Positions 8,357 through 60,719 of a DNA stretch of 64,000 bases are shown in pieces. Source of the DNA: Escherichia phage JS98. The stretch's first letter is position 1; the number at the start of each line of letters is the position of its first letter. The position numbers and the translations under genes are program-made. Under the pieces are notes generated by a model that worked only from the letters and a program-made list of their open reading frames with translations, did no database searches and was not told the DNA's origin. Location of the stretch: sequence record NC_010105.1; one strand, written 5' to 3'.

Positions 8357-8558
8357 AATTTAATTTCCTTAGCTATCGAACAAAACACACCGCGGTCACA
8401 AATCATTTTAATATTAAGGTCAATTATGGTATACCACACGTCCAGGCTAGATATTTCAGTTACTAGAACAGCTTTGCCGTTGATTGAATAATACTGGTTG
8501 ACTTTAATTTCTTTATCTTGGATAGTCATAATGTTCTCCTCATGTGTTGATAGGATAG

Positions 8559-8587
8559 ACTATAACACGTGAGGAGAGGAAGTAAAC
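8559..8587 (-). promoter_or_regulatory. early promoter (GTTTAC -35, 17-bp spacer, TATAGT -10)
   Basis: Minus-strand GTGTTTACTTCCTCTCCTCACGTGTTATAGTCTATCC, followed by GAGGAG RBS and a 53-aa ORF. Confidence 0.4.
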
Positions 8588-15288: not shown

Positions 15289-15810
15289 TGCGAGAACCGT
15301 CTTTAAACGCTCTTCAAATTTCTGAAGCAGAGCTTGGCGTTCAGCTCGTTGTGATTTGTACTGCTCGATACGACCTGAAGTGAGGGCGTACTGTTCGTTT
15401 ACTGATTCCCGCATGAATTCAGGAATCTCTTTACAAGCTTTGATTTCGTCAAACTTATCAATAACCGCTTGTTGTTCAGCAATCAAGTTATCAAAATAAG
15501 CGATATCTGATTTAATGTTTGCCAGGTCAGATTCAGTAGGCATTAAACGTTTATTACGCTCAGCTTGATAAGCTTGGTTGGTTTCACGACTCCAGTGAAG
15601 AGTACGTTTTTTGTTAGTGTTTTTATAGAGCTCTACAATACCAACTGAATCGATGATAACAATCCAGTTCCAACGGCTTTTGTAAATCTCTCCTCCAGAT
15701 ATGGTAATCTCATTACCACAAGCAACGTCGTTAAAGAACTTGCTTTGTTTTTCAGATTTGAAATTACCATTGTTAAAATTAATCAGTGAAAAAATATCTT
15801 TAGCGTTCAT
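15286..15810 (-). CDS. hypothetical protein (174 aa) with C-terminal coiled coil
   Basis: Intact ORF. Confidence 0.45.
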   Translation of the reverse strand: MNAKDIFSLINFNNGNFKSEKQSKFFNDVACGNEITISGGEIYKSRWNWIVIIDSVGIVELYKNTNKKRTLHWSRETNQAYQAERNKRLMPTESDLANIKSDIAYFDNLIAEQQAVIDKFDEIKACKEIPEFMRESVNEQYALTSGRIEQYKSQRAERQALLQKFEERLKTVLA

Positions 15811-15824
15811 GATAACCTCCAGTA

Positions 15825-15866
15825 GTTGATAGGTCTATAGTATCATGTCTAATGGAGATGTAAACA
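15825..15866 (-). promoter_or_regulatory. conserved early-promoter cassette (PeSL-like): GTTTACA -35, extended -10 TGaTACTAT, conserved AGACCTATCAA downstream
   Basis: Minus-strand GTTTACATCTCCATTAGACATGATACTATAGACCTATCAACTACTGG; one of at least 11 near-identical copies. Confidence 0.55.
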
Positions 15867-24759: not shown

Positions 24760-24778
24760 TTTGTAATCTCCTGTAGTT

Positions 24779-24816
24779 GATAGGTCTATAGTACCATGTC
24801 TACAGGAGATGTAAAC
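24779..24816 (-). promoter_or_regulatory. conserved early-promoter cassette (PeSL-like) with inverted repeat TCCTGTAG/CTACAGGA
   Basis: Minus-strand GTTTACATCTCCTGTAGACATGGTACTATAGACCTATCAACTACAGGAG upstream of regB. Confidence 0.55.
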
Positions 24817-26309: not shown

Positions 26310-26609
26310 TTAGAAAGAACCAGAACCTTTAATTGTGTTCTGGCGACCTTTATTTTCCAATTCGGAGTGGTCGATTTCGTATGCTTGGGCTACACCAAAG
26401 GCTTTTTTAACTTTAGCTAAAGAGCCTTTAGATGTAACAATATTAAAAGTATTACCTTTAGTAAAATCAACCAAATCCACTTGTACGCCCTGTTTACCGA
26501 GGCTTGCTACAATAGCATCAACATATTCTTGGTCTAAGGTGCCTTGGACACCTATTTGGAATGCTTTAGGAGCTTTGGCTTCTGTAATAAATTCTTGATA
26601 AGTTTTCAT
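26310..26609 (-). CDS. internal-protein-like (capsid-targeted) protein
   Basis: N-terminal MKTYQEFITEA matches the T4 internal-protein capsid-targeting leader. Confidence 0.5.
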   Translation of the reverse strand: MKTYQEFITEAKAPKAFQIGVQGTLDQEYVDAIVASLGKQGVQVDLVDFTKGNTFNIVTSKGSLAKVKKAFGVAQAYEIDHSELENKGRQNTIKGSGSF

Positions 26610-27068: not shown

Positions 27069-27086
27069 TTTTAATCTCCTGTAGTT

Positions 27087-27124
27087 GATAGGTCTATAGT
27101 ATCATGCCTACAGGAGAAGTAAAC
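27087..27124 (-). promoter_or_regulatory. conserved early-promoter cassette (PeSL-like); inverted repeat CTCCTGTAG/CTACAGGAG pairs the spacer with the denV RBS
   Basis: Minus-strand AAGTTTACTTCTCCTGTAGGCATGATACTATAGACCTATCAACTACAGGAGATTAAAAATG. Confidence 0.55.
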
Positions 27125-27523
27125 TTATTTGTAAGTTTTCATCCAATTCTTGAACAGAGCTGCAACGTCTTTCTCTTTAACGTTCAATTTAACGTCCAGC
27201 ATTTTGCCACCGGCGGCACGTGTCTGACGAATCTTGGCCGTACCGGTTTCGCCATTCCACTCAACATAATACTGCCCGGTGTTCATAGCGATACCATCGC
27301 CATAGTCTTCGTTCTTAGAAGTAGTGAATGCCAACTTCATGGTCTTAGAGACACGGGCCTGCATGCCTGTCTGCAGAGCGTTACGAACGCGAATAACCTG
27401 AGGAGTGGCCTGGGTTAGGTTCTCGTTCAGTTCTTCGGTGAACTCTTCTGATTCAAACATTGCCAAAAGTTCAGCGGGCGCCGGGATTACAGCTTCGGCG
27501 ATAAATTCATTATAAGTTTTCAT
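27125..27523 (-). CDS. ipII: internal protein II-like
   Basis: MKTYNEFIAEA leader; position between denV and ipIII as in T4. Confidence 0.6.
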   Translation of the reverse strand: MKTYNEFIAEAVIPAPAELLAMFESEEFTEELNENLTQATPQVIRVRNALQTGMQARVSKTMKLAFTTSKNEDYGDGIAMNTGQYYVEWNGETGTAKIRQTRAAGGKMLDVKLNVKEKDVAALFKNWMKTYK

Positions 27524-27563
27524 ATAGGTCCTTTAAAGGTAAATGTGTTTAAGTATAGGCTTA

Positions 27564-28160
27564 TTAATTACCACGGGCTGCATTAGCAACGGCGTAAGCG
27601 TACTGAATATTAGCGTCTTTAAACGTACCTTTAGAGGTATCTAGTTCTGCCTTAAAGCCGGCCTTAGTCATAACATCGGCAAATTCTTTACGGAAAGCCA
27701 TTGTATCAAGACCTTTCCATGCTGATTTATGCTTGGCAAATTCAAGACCAGCGAAGTTGACTGCTTTAGCCAATTTATTATCAATAGTCCATTTACCTGC
27801 TTTAGGTACAAATACCGGACCTTTCTGTTTAGAGAACAGTTTTAAATTCCAGCGACGAAGGTCGCCGTCGGCTTTAACAAAAGCTGCGTCCAAGTTACTA
27901 GCAACAACATCTTGAATATGGCCAAATTTAAGCCCATCAGCTTCAATATTTAGGTCGTTACGCCAGCGAAGTCCTTCCCAGGCGAAAGCTTTAAAGTCGG
28001 AAGCTTTTGTAGCTAAATACCGTTCAATAGGAGCTGTTTTAGCGTCAAAGCCGTTTCCTGGGTTGTCAACGCCGTTTCCTCGGTAGGTCCACTCATCTTT
28101 ATTAATGCCTTTGACCTTTCCTGCAGTAGCTTCGGCGATAAATTCTTTATACGTTTTCAT
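27564..28160 (-). CDS. ipIII: internal protein III-like
   Basis: MKTYKEFIAEA leader, 198 aa basic protein, position next to e as in T4. Confidence 0.6.
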   Translation of the reverse strand: MKTYKEFIAEATAGKVKGINKDEWTYRGNGVDNPGNGFDAKTAPIERYLATKASDFKAFAWEGLRWRNDLNIEADGLKFGHIQDVVASNLDAAFVKADGDLRRWNLKLFSKQKGPVFVPKAGKWTIDNKLAKAVNFAGLEFAKHKSAWKGLDTMAFRKEFADVMTKAGFKAELDTSKGTFKDANIQYAYAVANAARGN

Positions 28161-28209
28161 ACGGGTCCTTCAAATGTAAATATTTAATTAGTCTGTTCAA
28201 GTAACTGTA

Positions 28210-28241
28210 GATATACTATCACAATTCTAGGAGATGTAAAC
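28210..28241 (-). promoter_or_regulatory. early promoter (GTTTACA -35, TGataGTATAT -10) of the conserved family
   Basis: Minus-strand AGTTTACATCTCCTAGAATTGTGATAGTATATC upstream of ipIII. Confidence 0.45.
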
Positions 28242-28246
28242 TGCTT

Positions 28247-28735
28247 TTATCTATAAGCAGCCCAAGTACCTGTTTTAAAGGTGGCAATAACACGCTTGGC
28301 ACGATTCGGGGTTTGCTTGTACCAACGAGACTGCGCCAGGTTAACTGCGGCATCATCCCAACGTTTCTGTTGGAGCATACGCAGAGAGTTGGTAAATCCT
28401 GCTACACCAGCTTCGCCCATTTGGAAGACCATATTAATCAATGCGCAACGACGAACTTCGTCCAACACATCATAAACCGGTTTCAATTTAGGATTGCGCA
28501 TTATAGCTCTACGAGCATTTTCCACTGAACGATTAAAGAGCTGTTCAGCTTCAGCCATAGTAATACGACCATTACAAACTCGACCCATAAGCTTATCAAG
28601 TTCAGCGCGAGCAACATCTTTAGATGGGTTCTTGGTAACTAACTGGCCTATACCAATAGTCCAATAACCTTCAGTGTCTTTATAAAGATTTAAATCAAGA
28701 CCTTCGTCTTGACGTAACATATCAAAAATATCCAT
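28247..28735 (-). CDS. e: lysozyme (endolysin) gpe
   Basis: 162 aa; [32 protein letters not shown]...; catalytic Glu11/Asp20 context conserved; colinear with T4 lysozyme. Confidence 0.95.
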
Positions 28736-28758
28736 AATTACCTCCTGATTATAGGAGG

Positions 28759-28766
28759 TATTTATA
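28759..28766 (-). promoter_or_regulatory. late promoter TATAAATA for gene e, inside an RBS-sequestering inverted repeat
   Basis: Minus-strand GATATAAATACCTCCTATAATCAGGAGGTAATTATG; CCTCC...AGGAGG hairpin encloses the RBS. Confidence 0.6.
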
Positions 28767-29216
28767 TCAAAAGAGCGAATCTAAAACCTTAAACATCGAC
28801 GGGCCCATGACATATTCCCATTGCGGACGTTTAATCAAAGCGAAAGCGTCGAATTCCGGAATCGTACGACCATCAGGGAACGTATGGTAAGCTGTACATT
28901 TGCAATTCTTGAACTGCTCGTGTTCGACAGGCACAGTATATAAGAACAGGTGTAGATTCTTATTGCTTGAATATTTGAACTCACCTAGGTCTTTCAGGAA
29001 CGCAGGGTCGTATGCCGTGAATCCAATCTCTTCTTCGGTTTCACGCATTGCTGCTTGAATAGGCTCTTCACCTGGTTCGACATGACCTTTAGGAATGTCC
29101 CATTTATGACGCATGTTCTCTGGATTACGAGAGCCTGTTACACGACCCATAACCAATTCTTTATCGGCGGTCATGAACAAAATACCAGCAGATAGTTCTT
29201 TCACTTTCTTACTCAT
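28767..29216 (-). CDS. nudE: Nudix hydrolase NudE
   Basis: Start at MSKKVKELS (ATG 29214-29216); Nudix box [22 protein letters not shown]. Confidence 0.75.
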
Positions 29217-30970: not shown

Positions 30971-31008
30971 GATAGGTCTATAGTATCACACCTATAGACC
31001 TTGTATAC
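30971..31008 (-). promoter_or_regulatory. conserved early-promoter cassette (PeSL-like)
   Basis: Minus-strand GTATACAAGGTCTATAGGTGTGATACTATAGACCTATCAAAACAACAG. Confidence 0.5.
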
Positions 31009-36343: not shown

Positions 36344-36607
36344 TTATTTCATATTATTGAAATAATCTTCTGCATTAAAATCGTTATCATGGTAAACTTT
36401 GGTAGACGTTTTGGCGTAGCCTTCAGCTGAGAACATATTAATCACAACTTTAATTGTATACCACTGTCCATCTTCGTTACCCATTACTGCATAGGTTTCA
36501 TACACTGGGTGTTCAGGACCGATAACCTTAATATCGTTAACAGTAGCACCAAATTCTTCAGGAACGCATTTCATAAAGAAATTAAACAATTCACCATAAT
36601 TATCCAT
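36344..36607 (-). CDS. hypothetical protein (about 87 aa)
   Basis: Start at MDNYGELF (ATG 36605-36607) after GAAGGAGAG RBS. Confidence 0.4.
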   Translation of the reverse strand: MDNYGELFNFFMKCVPEEFGATVNDIKVIGPEHPVYETYAVMGNEDGQWYTIKVVINMFSAEGYAKTSTKVYHDNDFNAEDYFNNMK

Positions 36608-36633
36608 TTTACTCTCCTTCACACTGTTGTTTT

Positions 36634-36671
36634 GATAGGTCTATAGTATCATGTTTAAAGGAGGTGTAAAC
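36634..36671 (-). promoter_or_regulatory. conserved early-promoter cassette (PeSL-like)
   Basis: Minus-strand GTTTACACCTCCTTTAAACATGATACTATAGACCTATCAAAACAACAG. Confidence 0.5.
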
Positions 36672-40583: not shown

Positions 40584-40621
40584 GATAGGGCTATAGTATC
40601 ATGCCTATAGACCTTGTAAAC
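40584..40621 (-). promoter_or_regulatory. conserved early-promoter cassette (PeSL-like)
   Basis: Minus-strand GTTTACAAGGTCTATAGGCATGATACTATAGCCCTATCAAAACAAACCC. Confidence 0.5.
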
Positions 40622-43781: not shown

Positions 43782-44227
43782 CCTTTCCATCCTAATTTTT
43801 TCAGTGAGTTTTCAGTTATCAATCTAAAATTGATTCCCATTTTATCTGCTGTAGCTTTAGCAGCTTTCCATTTATCTTTATTTACACTCCATGTATAATG
43901 TTCGTTGATATATCTCTTTTTAGCGGCTGTAGTCATTTTAGCAGGAGCCGCTGGAGGATGGGTTTCTTTAAAAGGTTTGACTTCAAAAAAGAATTGTTGG
44001 CCGTTATCAAACTTAACCCAGAAGTCCATAAAATATCGACGTTTCTTTCCATCAGCATTACTAAAATACGGAATAACTACCTCTTCAGAGTTCCATTGGA
44101 CTACGTTAGGATGATTGTCAAGCCAACGCATGAGCCATGCTTCCCATGAGGAACGATATTGGATTTTCTTCCAGTCACCTTTATATTTTTGTAAGTTGGT
44201 AGGTTTAAATTTCCCTGAGTAAGCCAT
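43778..44227 (-). CDS. 4: head completion protein gp4
   Basis: 149 aa at the gene 4 position, divergent from gene 53. Confidence 0.65.
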
Positions 44228-44238
44228 AGTTGCCTCCT

Positions 44239-44246
44239 TATAAATA
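44239..44246 (+). promoter_or_regulatory. late promoter TATAAATA for gene 53
   Basis: TATAAATA about 28 nt upstream of gene 53 ATG. Confidence 0.6.
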
Positions 44247-44253
44247 TTAATAT

Positions 44254-44261
44254 TATTTATA
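44254..44261 (-). promoter_or_regulatory. late promoter TATAAATA for gene 4 (divergent)
   Basis: Minus-strand TATAAATA about 27 nt upstream of gene 4 ATG. Confidence 0.55.
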
Positions 44262-44273
44262 CTCGGAGGCCCT

Positions 44274-44876
44274 ATGCTCTTCTCATTTTTCGATCCTATC
44301 GATTACGAATCAAAAACAGTCAAGCCAGATTCCGGCTCATTAACAAATGCCGATGTATTGAGCGTGCCGATGACTGATATATTTAGAAATTATAAAGAAT
44401 ACTTTGATAGAGTGGCTAAAAATTATACACTAAAAACTTATTATATCAATGGAGCCCCGCGTCCGGAAGAATTAGCCCATCTTCTTTATGGCAATGTCCA
44501 ATTATATTGGGTTCTACTGATGTGTAATAATATATACGACCCGTATTATGGATGGATTACCGGCCAAGAAGCCGCCTACCAAGCAGCCATCCAAAGATAT
44601 TCTACTGCTGGTGGAAACCAGGTCCTTTACCATGTAAACGAAAAAGGCGAGAAATTCTGGAATCTTGTCAACACACCGGAAAATCCGTATACTTGGTATG
44701 ATAAAGGCGATACAGAAAAACGCTATCCTCAATACGAAGGCCCATTGGCCGCAGTAGATATTTACGAGGATGCTATTCGCAAAAATGAATATAAGCGCGA
44801 AATAAAAATTATAGACCCTAATGATATTGAGTCTTTTATTTCTGCTCTTATTCGTGAAATGGAGAAAGCCCTCTAA
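44274..44876 (+). CDS. 53: baseplate wedge protein gp53
   Basis: 200 aa, first late gene, immediately followed by gene 5. Confidence 0.8.
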   Translation: MLFSFFDPIDYESKTVKPDSGSLTNADVLSVPMTDIFRNYKEYFDRVAKNYTLKTYYINGAPRPEELAHLLYGNVQLYWVLLMCNNIYDPYYGWITGQEAAYQAAIQRYSTAGGNQVLYHVNEKGEKFWNLVNTPENPYTWYDKGDTEKRYPQYEGPLAAVDIYEDAIRKNEYKREIKIIDPNDIESFISALIREMEKAL

Positions 44877-58463: not shown

Positions 58464-60719
58464 ATGATTAACAAATTGGAACTTAGTGAGTTACCATTTG
58501 TTGACGGCGTACCTGATGCTCCTCAAAAGCGTATCCAATGGATACGCGAGGGTGATTGTATGTCTGCAGCAAAAACAAAATACGGCAATGAAGGTAATTT
58601 GAACGCTGCTGCTTTAGGAGTTCAGAAAAACGTAGAAGCTCTTGATGCCAACGATTTAAAAACTGCTGATAAAGTTAATGAGCTTATAGAAAACGTTAAT
58701 AATATCAATGACGCTTTAGAAATGTCAACAGATATTTCTATCATTCAACAAATAGAGAAAAACCGTGTTGATATTGTAGACCTTAAAAAAGTCACCGAAG
58801 ATACAACAGAAAAATTAGACACCTTAACAACCAATTTTGATTTCTTGCGTGAAGATGTTGGATACCATGACCCTTTACAAGACGGCCCATATTTAACTGT
58901 ACGTGAAAATATTGTTCTTCTTAAAAATGAAATTGGTCACTATGAGGACCAGGATATAAACGGTAATCCTTTACCTCCGGGTGAAACTAGTGAAGCCACT
59001 GGTATAAAACGCCGCATCATGGATAATACCACTGAATTGGTGGACCACCGTCTTCGTATTGATACCCTTGAAAGAAACTATGAAGATTCTGATGTTGGGC
59101 AATTAGGTATTAAACTAAATGAAATTCGTGCCGAATTAGGACCACATTCTGATACGGTAGGTAAACAACCCGCTTACACCCGAATTTCAGTATTAGAAAC
59201 GGCTGCAGTTAATTTTAATACGGCTATTGACGAAATTAAGGATAATATTGATTTCTCTGGTATGCCTATAAAGGACCGAGTAACTACTTTAGAAAGCAAA
59301 ACCTTTACCTTAGAAAATTCAGTTAACGTTGATTTAAAACCTAGAGTAACTTCTATAGAAACTCAAATCGGTTCTGAGTCTGCACCAGCATCTATTAATG
59401 GACGTTTAAGTGGGCTTCGTACTGATGTAAATGATTTAAAAACCGTTGTTGGTAATAGTTCTAGTGAAGGGCTTCGTTTCCAGGTTTCCGATATTAATCG
59501 ACGCCTTGGTAGTGAAGTGTCTCCTGCAGCTGGCACTATTAATAAGCGTTTGAATGATGTTATTATTCAAGCAAACCAATCTACCTCATCCATCCAGGAT
59601 ATTCAGGTAGAAATTGGTAACAACCAATCCGGTATAAAAGGTACTTTGCTTAAGCTCACAAATAAGGTTGACGGAACGAACCCTAACGGAGCTACCGTAG
59701 AAGAACGTGGTCTTATTAATGCGGTTACTTCTTTAGAAACCCAGATGCAAGGTAAATTAGGTGACGCGCCTTCTGATGGTAAACTCTATGCACGTCGAAA
59801 TGCGGCATGGGCTGAAGTTGTTAATAATTCCACAGAAATAGAAACTGTTAAAGCCGATTTGGTTGTTACTAATGGTAAAGTGACCGCTTTAACTTCTAGA
59901 GTAGATGATAACGATACTTCTATTTCATCTCTTAATACTCGCACCACTGCTCTAAATACTTCGGTTGGTGAGATTAAAGCCGATATAGTTACTATAAAGG
60001 CCAAAGATGTTGAACAGGACGGTCGTTTAACTTCTTTGGAAGAGGCTGATGTTACTATTAACGGTAAAATTGCTGCTCTTGAAACTAAGACAGATACCAC
60101 TGATGATGATGTCACAGCACTGGCTTTAGACGTTTCTTCTTTAGAGAACCAATTGACTCCTATAAAAGCCGATATTACCAAAAACAAAGGTGATATTGTT
60201 GCCTTAACTGGTCGAGTGGCTTCTACTGAAGGTGAAATTACCGCAATTAAAGTTGATACAGCCAAAATTGCTCCTTTAACAACTAGAGTTACTACGGCAG
60301 AAGGTAAAATCACTACTTTAGAAACAGGGCTTGCCGCTGTTAAAGTCGAATCCGATAAAGTAGCAGGAATCAATACCCGCCTTGGCACTGCAGAAGGTGA
60401 CATCGGAACACTTAAAACAGGGTTGGCTGAAGTTAAGGGTGAATCCGATAAAGTAGCAGCTATAGATACCCGTTTGGGTGTTGTTGAAGGCGAAGTTGGT
60501 ACTCTTGAAACAGGTTTGGCTGCTGTTAAAGTTGAATCTGATAAAGTTGCTGACTTAGGAACCCGTTTAACCGCTGCCGAAGGTAAAATTACAGCCTTAG
60601 AAACAGAATTATCTAAACGTCCACCGGTGGCTCCTGCCGCAGACGGACTTCCGTATGTTCTGGTTGATAACGCATGGGTATTATTGTCTGATTTTGTGAC
60701 TTTAAACTCAGCACCATAA
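58464..60719 (+). CDS. wac: fibritin (neck whiskers) wac, extended form
   Basis: 751 aa; N-terminal LSELPFVDGVPDA as in T4 fibritin, long heptad coiled coil, C-terminal foldon-like PYVLVDNAWVLLSDF. Confidence 0.8.
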   Translation: MINKLELSELPFVDGVPDAPQKRIQWIREGDCMSAAKTKYGNEGNLNAAALGVQKNVEALDANDLKTADKVNELIENVNNINDALEMSTDISIIQQIEKNRVDIVDLKKVTEDTTEKLDTLTTNFDFLREDVGYHDPLQDGPYLTVRENIVLLKNEIGHYEDQDINGNPLPPGETSEATGIKRRIMDNTTELVDHRLRIDTLERNYEDSDVGQLGIKLNEIRAELGPHSDTVGKQPAYTRISVLETAAVNFNTAIDEIKDNIDFSGMPIKDRVTTLESKTFTLENSVNVDLKPRVTSIETQIGSESAPASINGRLSGLRTDVNDLKTVVGNSSSEGLRFQVSDINRRLGSEVSPAAGTINKRLNDVIIQANQSTSSIQDIQVEIGNNQSGIKGTLLKLTNKVDGTNPNGATVEERGLINAVTSLETQMQGKLGDAPSDGKLYARRNAAWAEVVNNSTEIETVKADLVVTNGKVTALTSRVDDNDTSISSLNTRTTALNTSVGEIKADIVTIKAKDVEQDGRLTSLEEADVTINGKIAALETKTDTTDDDVTALALDVSSLENQLTPIKADITKNKGDIVALTGRVASTEGEITAIKVDTAKIAPLTTRVTTAEGKITTLETGLAAVKVESDKVAGINTRLGTAEGDIGTLKTGLAEVKGESDKVAAIDTRLGVVEGEVGTLETGLAAVKVESDKVADLGTRLTAAEGKITALETELSKRPPVAPAADGLPYVLVDNAWVLLSDFVTLNSAP
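60322..60600 (+). repeat. three tandem 93-bp (31-aa) repeats inside wac coiled-coil region
   Basis: AAACAG repeat landmarks at 60322, 60415, 60508, 60601; units TGLAAVKVESDKVAGINTRLGTAEGDIGTLK / TGLAEVKGESDKVAAIDTRLGVVEGEVGTLE / TGLAAVKVESDKVADLGTRLTAAEGKITALE. Confidence 0.7.

Follow-up and report, generated by a model that had tools for sequence, protein, structure and literature searches.

The window analyzed here is the whole 64,000-nucleotide (nt) stretch of Escherichia phage JS98 (sequence record NC_010105.1). At the lysozyme gene e and at denV and regB, it carries promoters combined with hairpins that are predicted to pair the ribosome-binding site (RBS) of the gene served. The window DNA is a 98% match to that of Escherichia phage JS10, and the phage is, judged by sequence, T4-type (Dhakavirus) and JS98-like. 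Gene annotation was taken from JS10 and T4 (the T4 record, AF158101, is without promoter features). All genes in the region of e, denV, and regB lie on the minus strand, in the T4 order nudE-e-ipIII-(ip-like)-denV ... regB. The cost of opening a Shine-Dalgarno (SD) sequence (i.e., the energy to make it single-stranded) was calculated with ViennaRNA partition functions for RNA starting at the gene's own predicted transcription start (+1), here called proximal RNA, and for RNA from upstream promoters, here called read-through RNA. All +1 positions in the window were predicted from consensus rules, in which the late motif spans -13 to -6 and the early -10 element ends at -7, with +1 as the 7th nt after it (PMC1524935).

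The minus strand at e reads TATAAATA-CCTCCT-ATAATC-AGGAGG-TAATT-ATG. The late promoter motif TATAAATA (28759-28766) spans -13 to -6 relative to the predicted +1 at 28753. An 8-bp stem joins the anti-SD 5' arm TACCTCCT (28753-28760, i.e., -7 to +1 of the late promoter) with the 3' arm AGGAGGTA (28739-28746), which contains the SD AGGAGG, and the loop is ATAATC (28752-28747). An outer 5-bp stem, present in both the minimum-free-energy and the centroid structure of read-through RNA, also pairs the start codon (ATG 28735-28733), with UUAUG (28733-28737) opposite UAUAA (28766-28762). The predicted late start falls on the last base of the anti-SD arm, CCUCC occupying -5 to -1; the promoter is so placed that the predicted late RNA of e is without the 5' strand of the helix. 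The hairpin has a folding energy of -14.1 kcal/mol (z -3.3), and none of 200 shuffled sequences folds as well. Opening the SD costs 8.8 to 9.6 kcal/mol in read-through RNA, where SD and AUG are both paired, versus 5.4 to 5.8 kcal/mol in proximal RNA. Among 14 distinct orthologous e leaders, the anti-SD lies exactly between (T/A/G)ATAAATA and +1, and the stems covary. A preliminary description of the window had recognized the classic T4 lysozyme arrangement at e, and correctly so: the element is orthologous to the T4 lysozyme control known from experiments, with a late motif that adjoins the anti-SD and a predicted late RNA lacking the 5' arm. That description had misplaced the motif, putting TATAAATA inside CCTCC-TATAATC-AGGAGG; it adjoins the 5' arm at 28766-28759, and the loop together with the last base of the arm reads only TATAAT. 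The misplacement is the T4 arrangement transferred, since the longer T4 loop does contain a second TATAAATA. The e element belongs to textbook T4 biology, to which the window adds one more orthologue. On the plus strand (28739-28770), TTTATATCAA, complementary to TATAAATA, comes after the hairpin; this antisense strand scores as terminator-like because the promoter motif reads there as a T-rich tail, probably as a by-product.

The denV gene has an early promoter in place of a late one. Its -35 element GTTTAC (27119-27124, minus strand) matches the T4 early consensus (PMC1524935) and stands directly after the stop codon of an upstream gene of 132 amino acids (aa). The 17-nt spacer between -35 and -10 contains the anti-SD 5' arm TCTCCTGTAG (27108-27117; 7 nt from the upstream stop), the -10 element TACTAT (27096-27101) sits in the hairpin loop, and the 3' arm CTACAGGAGA (27075-27084) includes the SD GGAG, after a predicted +1 at A27089 and before the ATG at 27068-27066. 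The regB unit, also on the minus strand, repeats this layout: -35 GTTTAC (24811-24816), 5' arm ATCTCCTGTAG in the promoter spacer (24800-24810), -10 TACTAT in the loop (24788-24793), predicted +1 at A24781, 3' arm CTACAGGAGAT with the SD (24766-24776), and ATG at 24759-24757. Since the anti-SD lies in the promoter spacer, it cannot be part of the proximal transcript. The opening cost is 9.5 to 10.8 kcal/mol in read-through versus 2.6 to 3.0 kcal/mol in proximal RNA for denV, and 11.4 versus 1.6 to 4.1 kcal/mol for regB. The two hairpins fold at -18.1 and -19.2 kcal/mol (z -3.9 and -3.6, respectively; 0/200 shuffles fold as well), and no structure is predicted when the leaders of e, denV, and regB are folded alone from the predicted proximal +1. 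The denV and regB units are one duplicated 53-nt cassette with 3 differences and are therefore not independent observations within this genome. The sequence TCCTGTAG is counted 8 times, versus 1.3 expected.

Thus, inverted repeats that pair the RBS are present on the minus strand at all three genes, as had been described. The range proposed for them (27069-28770) covers denV and e, while the regB site (24816-24757) lies 2.3 kb outside. The structure prediction suggested as a check places the SD in a paired state in read-through RNA, at 8.8 to 11.4 kcal/mol versus 1.6 to 5.8 kcal/mol in proximal RNA. The proposal that denV and regB follow the same logic as e also holds computationally and comparatively: the anti-SD is in the promoter spacer, and T4 regB and dozens of relatives preserve the pairing although their sequences differ.

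Conservation and covariation among T4-like phages

In the syntenic 10 kb of T4, only 3 of the 24 annotated genes, namely regB (12.7 kcal/mol), denV (12.0 kcal/mol), and e (13.4 kcal/mol), have an SD opening cost above 6 kcal/mol. T4 denV has essentially the cassette of the window (2 differences from -35 through the SD), and T4 regB has the architecture of the window with different arms, TTCCTCTTGAC and GTTAAGAGGAG. All 31 distinct T4-like denV leaders are sequestered, at 6.9 to 17 kcal/mol versus 0.7 to 3.9 kcal/mol in proximal RNA; when the part 5' of +1 was shuffled, the cost was 2 to 5 ± 1.5 kcal/mol, and the observed value was reached by 0 to 1 of 60 shuffles. These leaders use at least nine arm sequences (e.g., TTCCTCCAAG/CTTGGAGGAA, ATCTCCGTTTG/CAAACGGAGAT, and a 14-bp version) in two layouts. 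The anti-SD either follows the -35 element in the spacer or is made of the end of the -10 element and the discriminator (e.g., ATGTCCTCCT/AGGAGGACAT). In this second layout, changes in the bases preceding the AUG go along with changes in the -10 variant, and the helix can be as long as 22 to 26 bp, extending over the AUG and the first codons. Common to both is an anti-SD that always lies upstream of +1, by 3 to 30 nt. Its distance from the upstream stop codon is bimodal (6 to 16 or 31 to 36 nt), and the leaders with the longer distance, which are those of the second layout, are sequestered as strongly or more strongly (10 to 17 kcal/mol). Among distinct regB leaders, 10 of 15 are strongly sequestered, and one lineage has a 15-bp perfect stem, TTTCTCCTCTTTATG/CATAAAGAGGAGAAA.

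The arms covary. Leader arms were anchored by a script on the CTCC/GGAG core, because MAFFT leader alignments lose the arm register. Across nine arm classes, two to four Watson-Crick pair types occur at each of five positions beside the core. When cognate arms were permuted, the observed 36 bp of contiguous pairs (versus 11.9 ± 4.6) were reached in 0 of 20000 permutations, and the corresponding permutation of duplex energies gave 1 of 20000. An Rfam search returned no family relevant to these hairpins.

The arrangement is absent from denV relatives at 40 to 46% identity (L060-L099) and from jumbo-phage loci, and is therefore confined to the enterobacterial T4-like group. Four jumbo-phage denV loci (L046, L050, L052, and L056) have a different type of promoter about 40 to 70 nt upstream of the ATG, in which the TTGAC -35 element is embedded in a G+C-rich hairpin and a T-run and TATAAT follow in that order, so that a terminator overlaps a promoter; folding of these four loci gave no SD sequestration.

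Sequestered gene starts and promoter cassettes across the window

Over the roughly 100 candidate gene starts of the window, the median SD opening cost is 3.0 kcal/mol, and the promoter-proximal units number about 23 in all. Eight gene starts have an SD that an upstream arm sequesters with an opening cost of at least 7.8 kcal/mol, and in all eight a promoter +1 lies between the arm and the SD. Besides regB, denV, and e, they comprise the starts at 15810, 8529, and 36607 and those of two divergent late genes, at 44227 and 44274. The first three of these additional starts belong to early promoter units on the minus strand. The unit of a 174-aa gene of unassigned function (15805-15865) consists of GTTTAC, TCTCCATTAG (15858-15849), TACTAT, CTACTGGAGG (15825-15816), and the ATG at 15810; opening its SD costs 10.9 kcal/mol, versus 2.7 kcal/mol in proximal RNA (0/40 shuffles reach 10.9). 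That of a 58-aa gene, also functionally unassigned (8524-8587), consists of GTTTAC, TTCCTCTCCTCA (8581-8570), TATAGT, TGAGGAGAA (8542-8534), and the ATG at 8529, at 11.4 to 13.3 versus 2.5 kcal/mol. A weaker unit (36602-36671) serves an 87-aa gene with GTTTAC, CTCCTT (36663-36658), TACTAT, AAGGAG (36619-36614), and the ATG at 36607, at 7.8 versus 0.3 kcal/mol.

The divergent late genes (44225-44286, both strands) encode 149 and 200 aa; their ATGs are 47 nt apart, and TATAAATA is present on each of the two strands. Each SD, read as its reverse complement, serves as anti-SD for the other gene, at 13.1 and 13.6 kcal/mol in antisense read-through RNA. By the T4 map, the two genes are probably gp4- and gp53-like.

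GTTTAC-N17-TACTAT-AGACCTATCAA is common to at least 11 repeated intergenic early-promoter cassettes of the window, which have an SD and ATG at the 3' end. Their -10/+1 cores on the minus strand lie at 40595, 40229, 36645, 30982, 27098, 24790, 20661, 17550, 17238, and 15839, and the cassettes conserve the initial transcribed region AGACCTATCAA in addition to the promoter elements. At many early promoters, an inverted repeat brackets the -10 element (spacer versus discriminator/+1) and leaves the SD untouched, resembling published PeSL stem-loops. Such repeats are found on the minus strand at 30982, 40229, 40595, 36286, 35811, and 7397 (gene-start or core coordinates), with examples including AGGTCTATAG/CTATAGACCT, GGGCTTTAG/CTATAGCCC with a compensatory change, and GGGACC/GGTCCC. 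The ipIII promoter (28240-28213) has TCTCC in its spacer, yet the distant ipIII SD is not sequestered (opening cost, 2.4 kcal/mol).

Two further observations concern coding sequences. Six genes on the minus strand (starts at 26609, 27523, 28160, 37361, 40556, and 40845) share a repeated N terminus, MKTY(Q/N/K)EFI..., which resembles the T4 internal-protein capsid-targeting sequence and suggests an expanded set of internal-protein genes. On the plus strand, three tandem 93-nt repeats lie within a gene at 60294-60572, with 65 to 72% identity to the first copy.

A putative translational insulator and its alternatives

We propose, with a probability of roughly 0.7, that the promoter-embedded hairpin acts as a translational insulator that would silence read-through RNA and leave proximal RNA translatable. 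In this model, the SD (at e, also the AUG) forms the 3' arm, and the anti-SD arm lies just upstream of the predicted +1 of the gene's own promoter. RNA from upstream promoters would hold both arms, fold, and hide the RBS, while RNA from the proximal promoter, without the 5' arm, would be freely translated. The proximal promoter of e is late, and lysozyme would therefore be made only late, as in the known T4 mechanism. At denV, regB, and the three further window genes, the proximal promoter is of the sigma-70 early type and encodes the anti-SD in its spacer or, in relatives, in the -10/discriminator region. Because the promoter is early, translation of these genes would be confined to immediate-early RNA, and middle or late read-through RNA would not yield their proteins. 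We infer that such RNA exists: late RNA from the e promoter plausibly runs through the internal-protein genes into denV, and a terminator scan found no terminator-like site between e, the internal-protein genes, and denV, nor between the upstream genes and these promoters. The expectation in the preliminary description, that translation is probably limited to transcripts of the proximal promoter, is supported computationally and comparatively.

Several points weigh against this proposal. The +1 positions in the window phage come from consensus rules. Within its family, the e hairpin of the JS98 type is the weakest, discriminating by only about 3.4 kcal/mol (8.8 versus 5.4). The SD is not sequestered in 12 of the 17 early promoter units of the window; with 5 of 17 sequestered, the feature is selective and not a property of all promoters. 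Sequestration of regB is absent in one lineage (two leaders, L008/L010; 0.7 to 1.0 kcal/mol) and weak in another (three leaders, L011-L014; 4 to 5 kcal/mol), and the feature is therefore dispensable. Non-cognate promoter/leader pairs already have duplex energies of about -10 kcal/mol; many early promoters have a generic CTCC-like motif, so that part of the complementarity is family-wide and not gene specific. Finally, an anti-SD 6 to 13 nt after an upstream stop codon, as in the spacer layout, might be opened by terminating ribosomes.

This last point is the basis of a different explanation, translational coupling, in which a ribosome finishing translation of the upstream gene would open the 5' arm, so that denV and regB are not silenced but translated in proportion to that gene. 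The short distances (6 to 13 nt in the spacer layout, 7 nt for window denV) would be about the reach of a terminating ribosome, and the regB distance is 11 to 13 nt, which counts rather against coupling. In the second layout the anti-SD is 31 to 36 nt from the stop, out of reach, with undiminished sequestration; the conserved position is relative to +1 and not to the stop, and the T4 e experiments show repression and not coupling (PMC3014915). We consider coupling very unlikely. The denV and regB hairpins might instead be PeSL-type stem-loops that attenuate or terminate upstream transcription and whose repeats mediate modular recombination, the pairing of the SD being incidental. The sharing of promoter sequence by at least 11 window cassettes, the near identity of the denV and regB copies, and the window promoters with inverted repeats around -10 that do not touch the SD would all fit, as would the T4 denV cassette, which has only 2 differences from that of the window at a DenV protein identity of only about 77 to 79% (T4-like loci). 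According to PMC2839356, published stem-loops lie between -35 and -10 or over -10, and one cut reporter expression like a strong terminator. At the window sites, however, no U-tract follows the stems (flanks AUUAAAAAUG and AUUACAAAAUG), and a terminator scan of the minus strand found none; a G+C-rich hairpin with a U-run on the transcribed strand, the signature of an intrinsic terminator, is missing, and only the antisense (plus) strand of e scores. The second layout has the -10 element in an arm and not in the loop, so that what the two layouts share is the SD in the 3' arm and a 5' arm upstream of +1, and the cognate-specific covariation involves bases flanking the SD. PeSL-type attenuation as the whole explanation appears unlikely, and recombination and insulation are not mutually exclusive.

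A role in RNA fate, with translation secondary, is conceivable in the form of shielding of GGAG from RegB, of processing or stability elements, or of RNase III sites in the 22- to 26-bp helices seen in some relatives. RegB cuts GGAG in early SDs, that of regB itself included, and secondary structure inhibits the enzyme (PMC1702504 and PMC3014915); all 3' arms contain GGAG or GAGG. Against this, e combines the same design with a late promoter, and there the function that has been demonstrated is repression of translation; T4 denV owes the RegB resistance of its SD to 3' context and not to structure (PMC1702504), and the placement of the 5' arm upstream of +1 is left unexplained. We regard this account as highly improbable. 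Chance complementarity between SDs and pyrimidine-rich promoter spacers would be helped by the shortness of the CTCC/GGAG cores and by a CTCC-like spacer motif that many early promoters of the family have by common descent. It is extremely unlikely given the hairpin z scores of -3.3 to -3.9 (0/200 shuffles), pairing that extends 5 to 11 bp past the core and covaries, permutation results of 0/20000 and 1/20000, and the T4 comparison, in which none of the 24 genes but regB, denV, and e is conspicuous.

If translational insulation is the correct reading, the early-promoter form would make the promoter-in-hairpin a general T4-type way of tying translation to the transcription start, beyond the delaying of late proteins. 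It would offer a simple cis explanation of how production of certain early proteins, among them a potentially harmful RNase (RegB), ceases although transcription from upstream continues through their genes. The early-promoter form also shows promoter sequence (spacer, -10 variant, and discriminator) that co-evolves with the RBS, which is relevant to promoter annotation and to the design of insulated expression units. A broader version, which we put forward tentatively and hold to be rather doubtful, is that T4-type phages possess a general translational insulation code, in which early sigma-70 promoters carry the anti-SD of the gene served. The anti-SD would be placed in the -35/-10 spacer or in the -10/discriminator region, where even the -10 variant (TATGAT, TATAGT, or TATAAT) and the bases preceding the AUG covary. 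Selected early proteins, namely RegB, DenV, and several small proteins of unassigned function, would be made only from immediate-early RNA. Such a code would be one contributor to the sudden stop of early protein synthesis, for which the mechanism of promoter shut-down is described as incompletely understood (PMC3014915).

Relation to known control systems

The closest known system is T4 e itself. Long transcripts form an inhibitory structure that lowers lysozyme synthesis about 100-fold, and late transcripts are without its 5' strand (McPheeters et al. 1986, as summarized in Uzan & Miller 2010, PMC3014915, which mentions that similar leaders had already been noted in related phages). Window e is orthologous (77% protein identity to T4-like loci), shares the synteny nudE-e-ipIII-denV, and has its SD in the 3' arm and the late promoter TATAAATA adjoining the anti-SD. 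It differs in that T4 has two late promoters, one of them in a 12-nt loop, whereas the window has one and a 6-nt loop, (T)ATAATC; the predicted discrimination is 13.4 to 13.9 versus 2.8 kcal/mol in T4 and 8.8 versus 5.4 kcal/mol in the window.

Window regB keeps the GGAG SD and the own early promoter known from RegB autoregulation (PMC3014915), and the hairpin would be an additional layer on read-through RNA, outside the autoregulation described. The published RegB/S1 consensus is GGAGRAYARAA, with a total absence of C at position 9 (PMC1702504). It was compared with the window at GGAG 24766-24769 (regB) and 27076-27079 (denV): the regB context GGAGAUUACAA differs from it by a C at position 9, and the denV context GGAGAUUAAAA fits it better than does the RegB-resistant T4 denV.

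The PeSL cassettes of RB49/phi1, PST/T4, and nt-1/KVP40 resemble those of the window in being repeated intergenic units, common to unrelated genes, that combine an AT-rich region and an early promoter with a stem-loop and, at the end, SD and ATG; the stem-loop is often between -35 and -10 or over -10 (PMC2839356 and PMC4122927). The PeSL stem-loops, however, are described as separate from the SD and as terminators or attenuators, those of PST/T4 being drawn upstream of the promoter, whereas the 3' arm in the window is the SD itself and has no terminator signature.

Our literature search, which did not reach older primary papers, returned only late-promoter cases of hairpin control (e, soc, 49, I-TevI-III, segB, and mobE). 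The early-promoter version looks like a little-noted variant, with real uncertainty as to a prior description: potential stem-loops preceding tk, vs, and regB are reportedly mentioned in the abstract of Valerie et al. (Nucleic Acids Research, 1986). In soc, 49, I-TevI/II/III, segB, and Aeh1 mobE, as in the window, the RBS is hidden in RNA from distal promoters, and the proximal start lies inside or after the 5' arm (PMC3014915 and PMC2988022). Their promoters are late, whereas those of window denV, regB, and three further genes are of the sigma-70-type early class; promoters specific to homing endonucleases are middle or late, never early (PMC3014915 and PMC2988022). The anti-SD in the window is encoded within the early promoter itself, and translation would be confined to the earliest RNA, inverting the temporal logic of the late-promoter controls.

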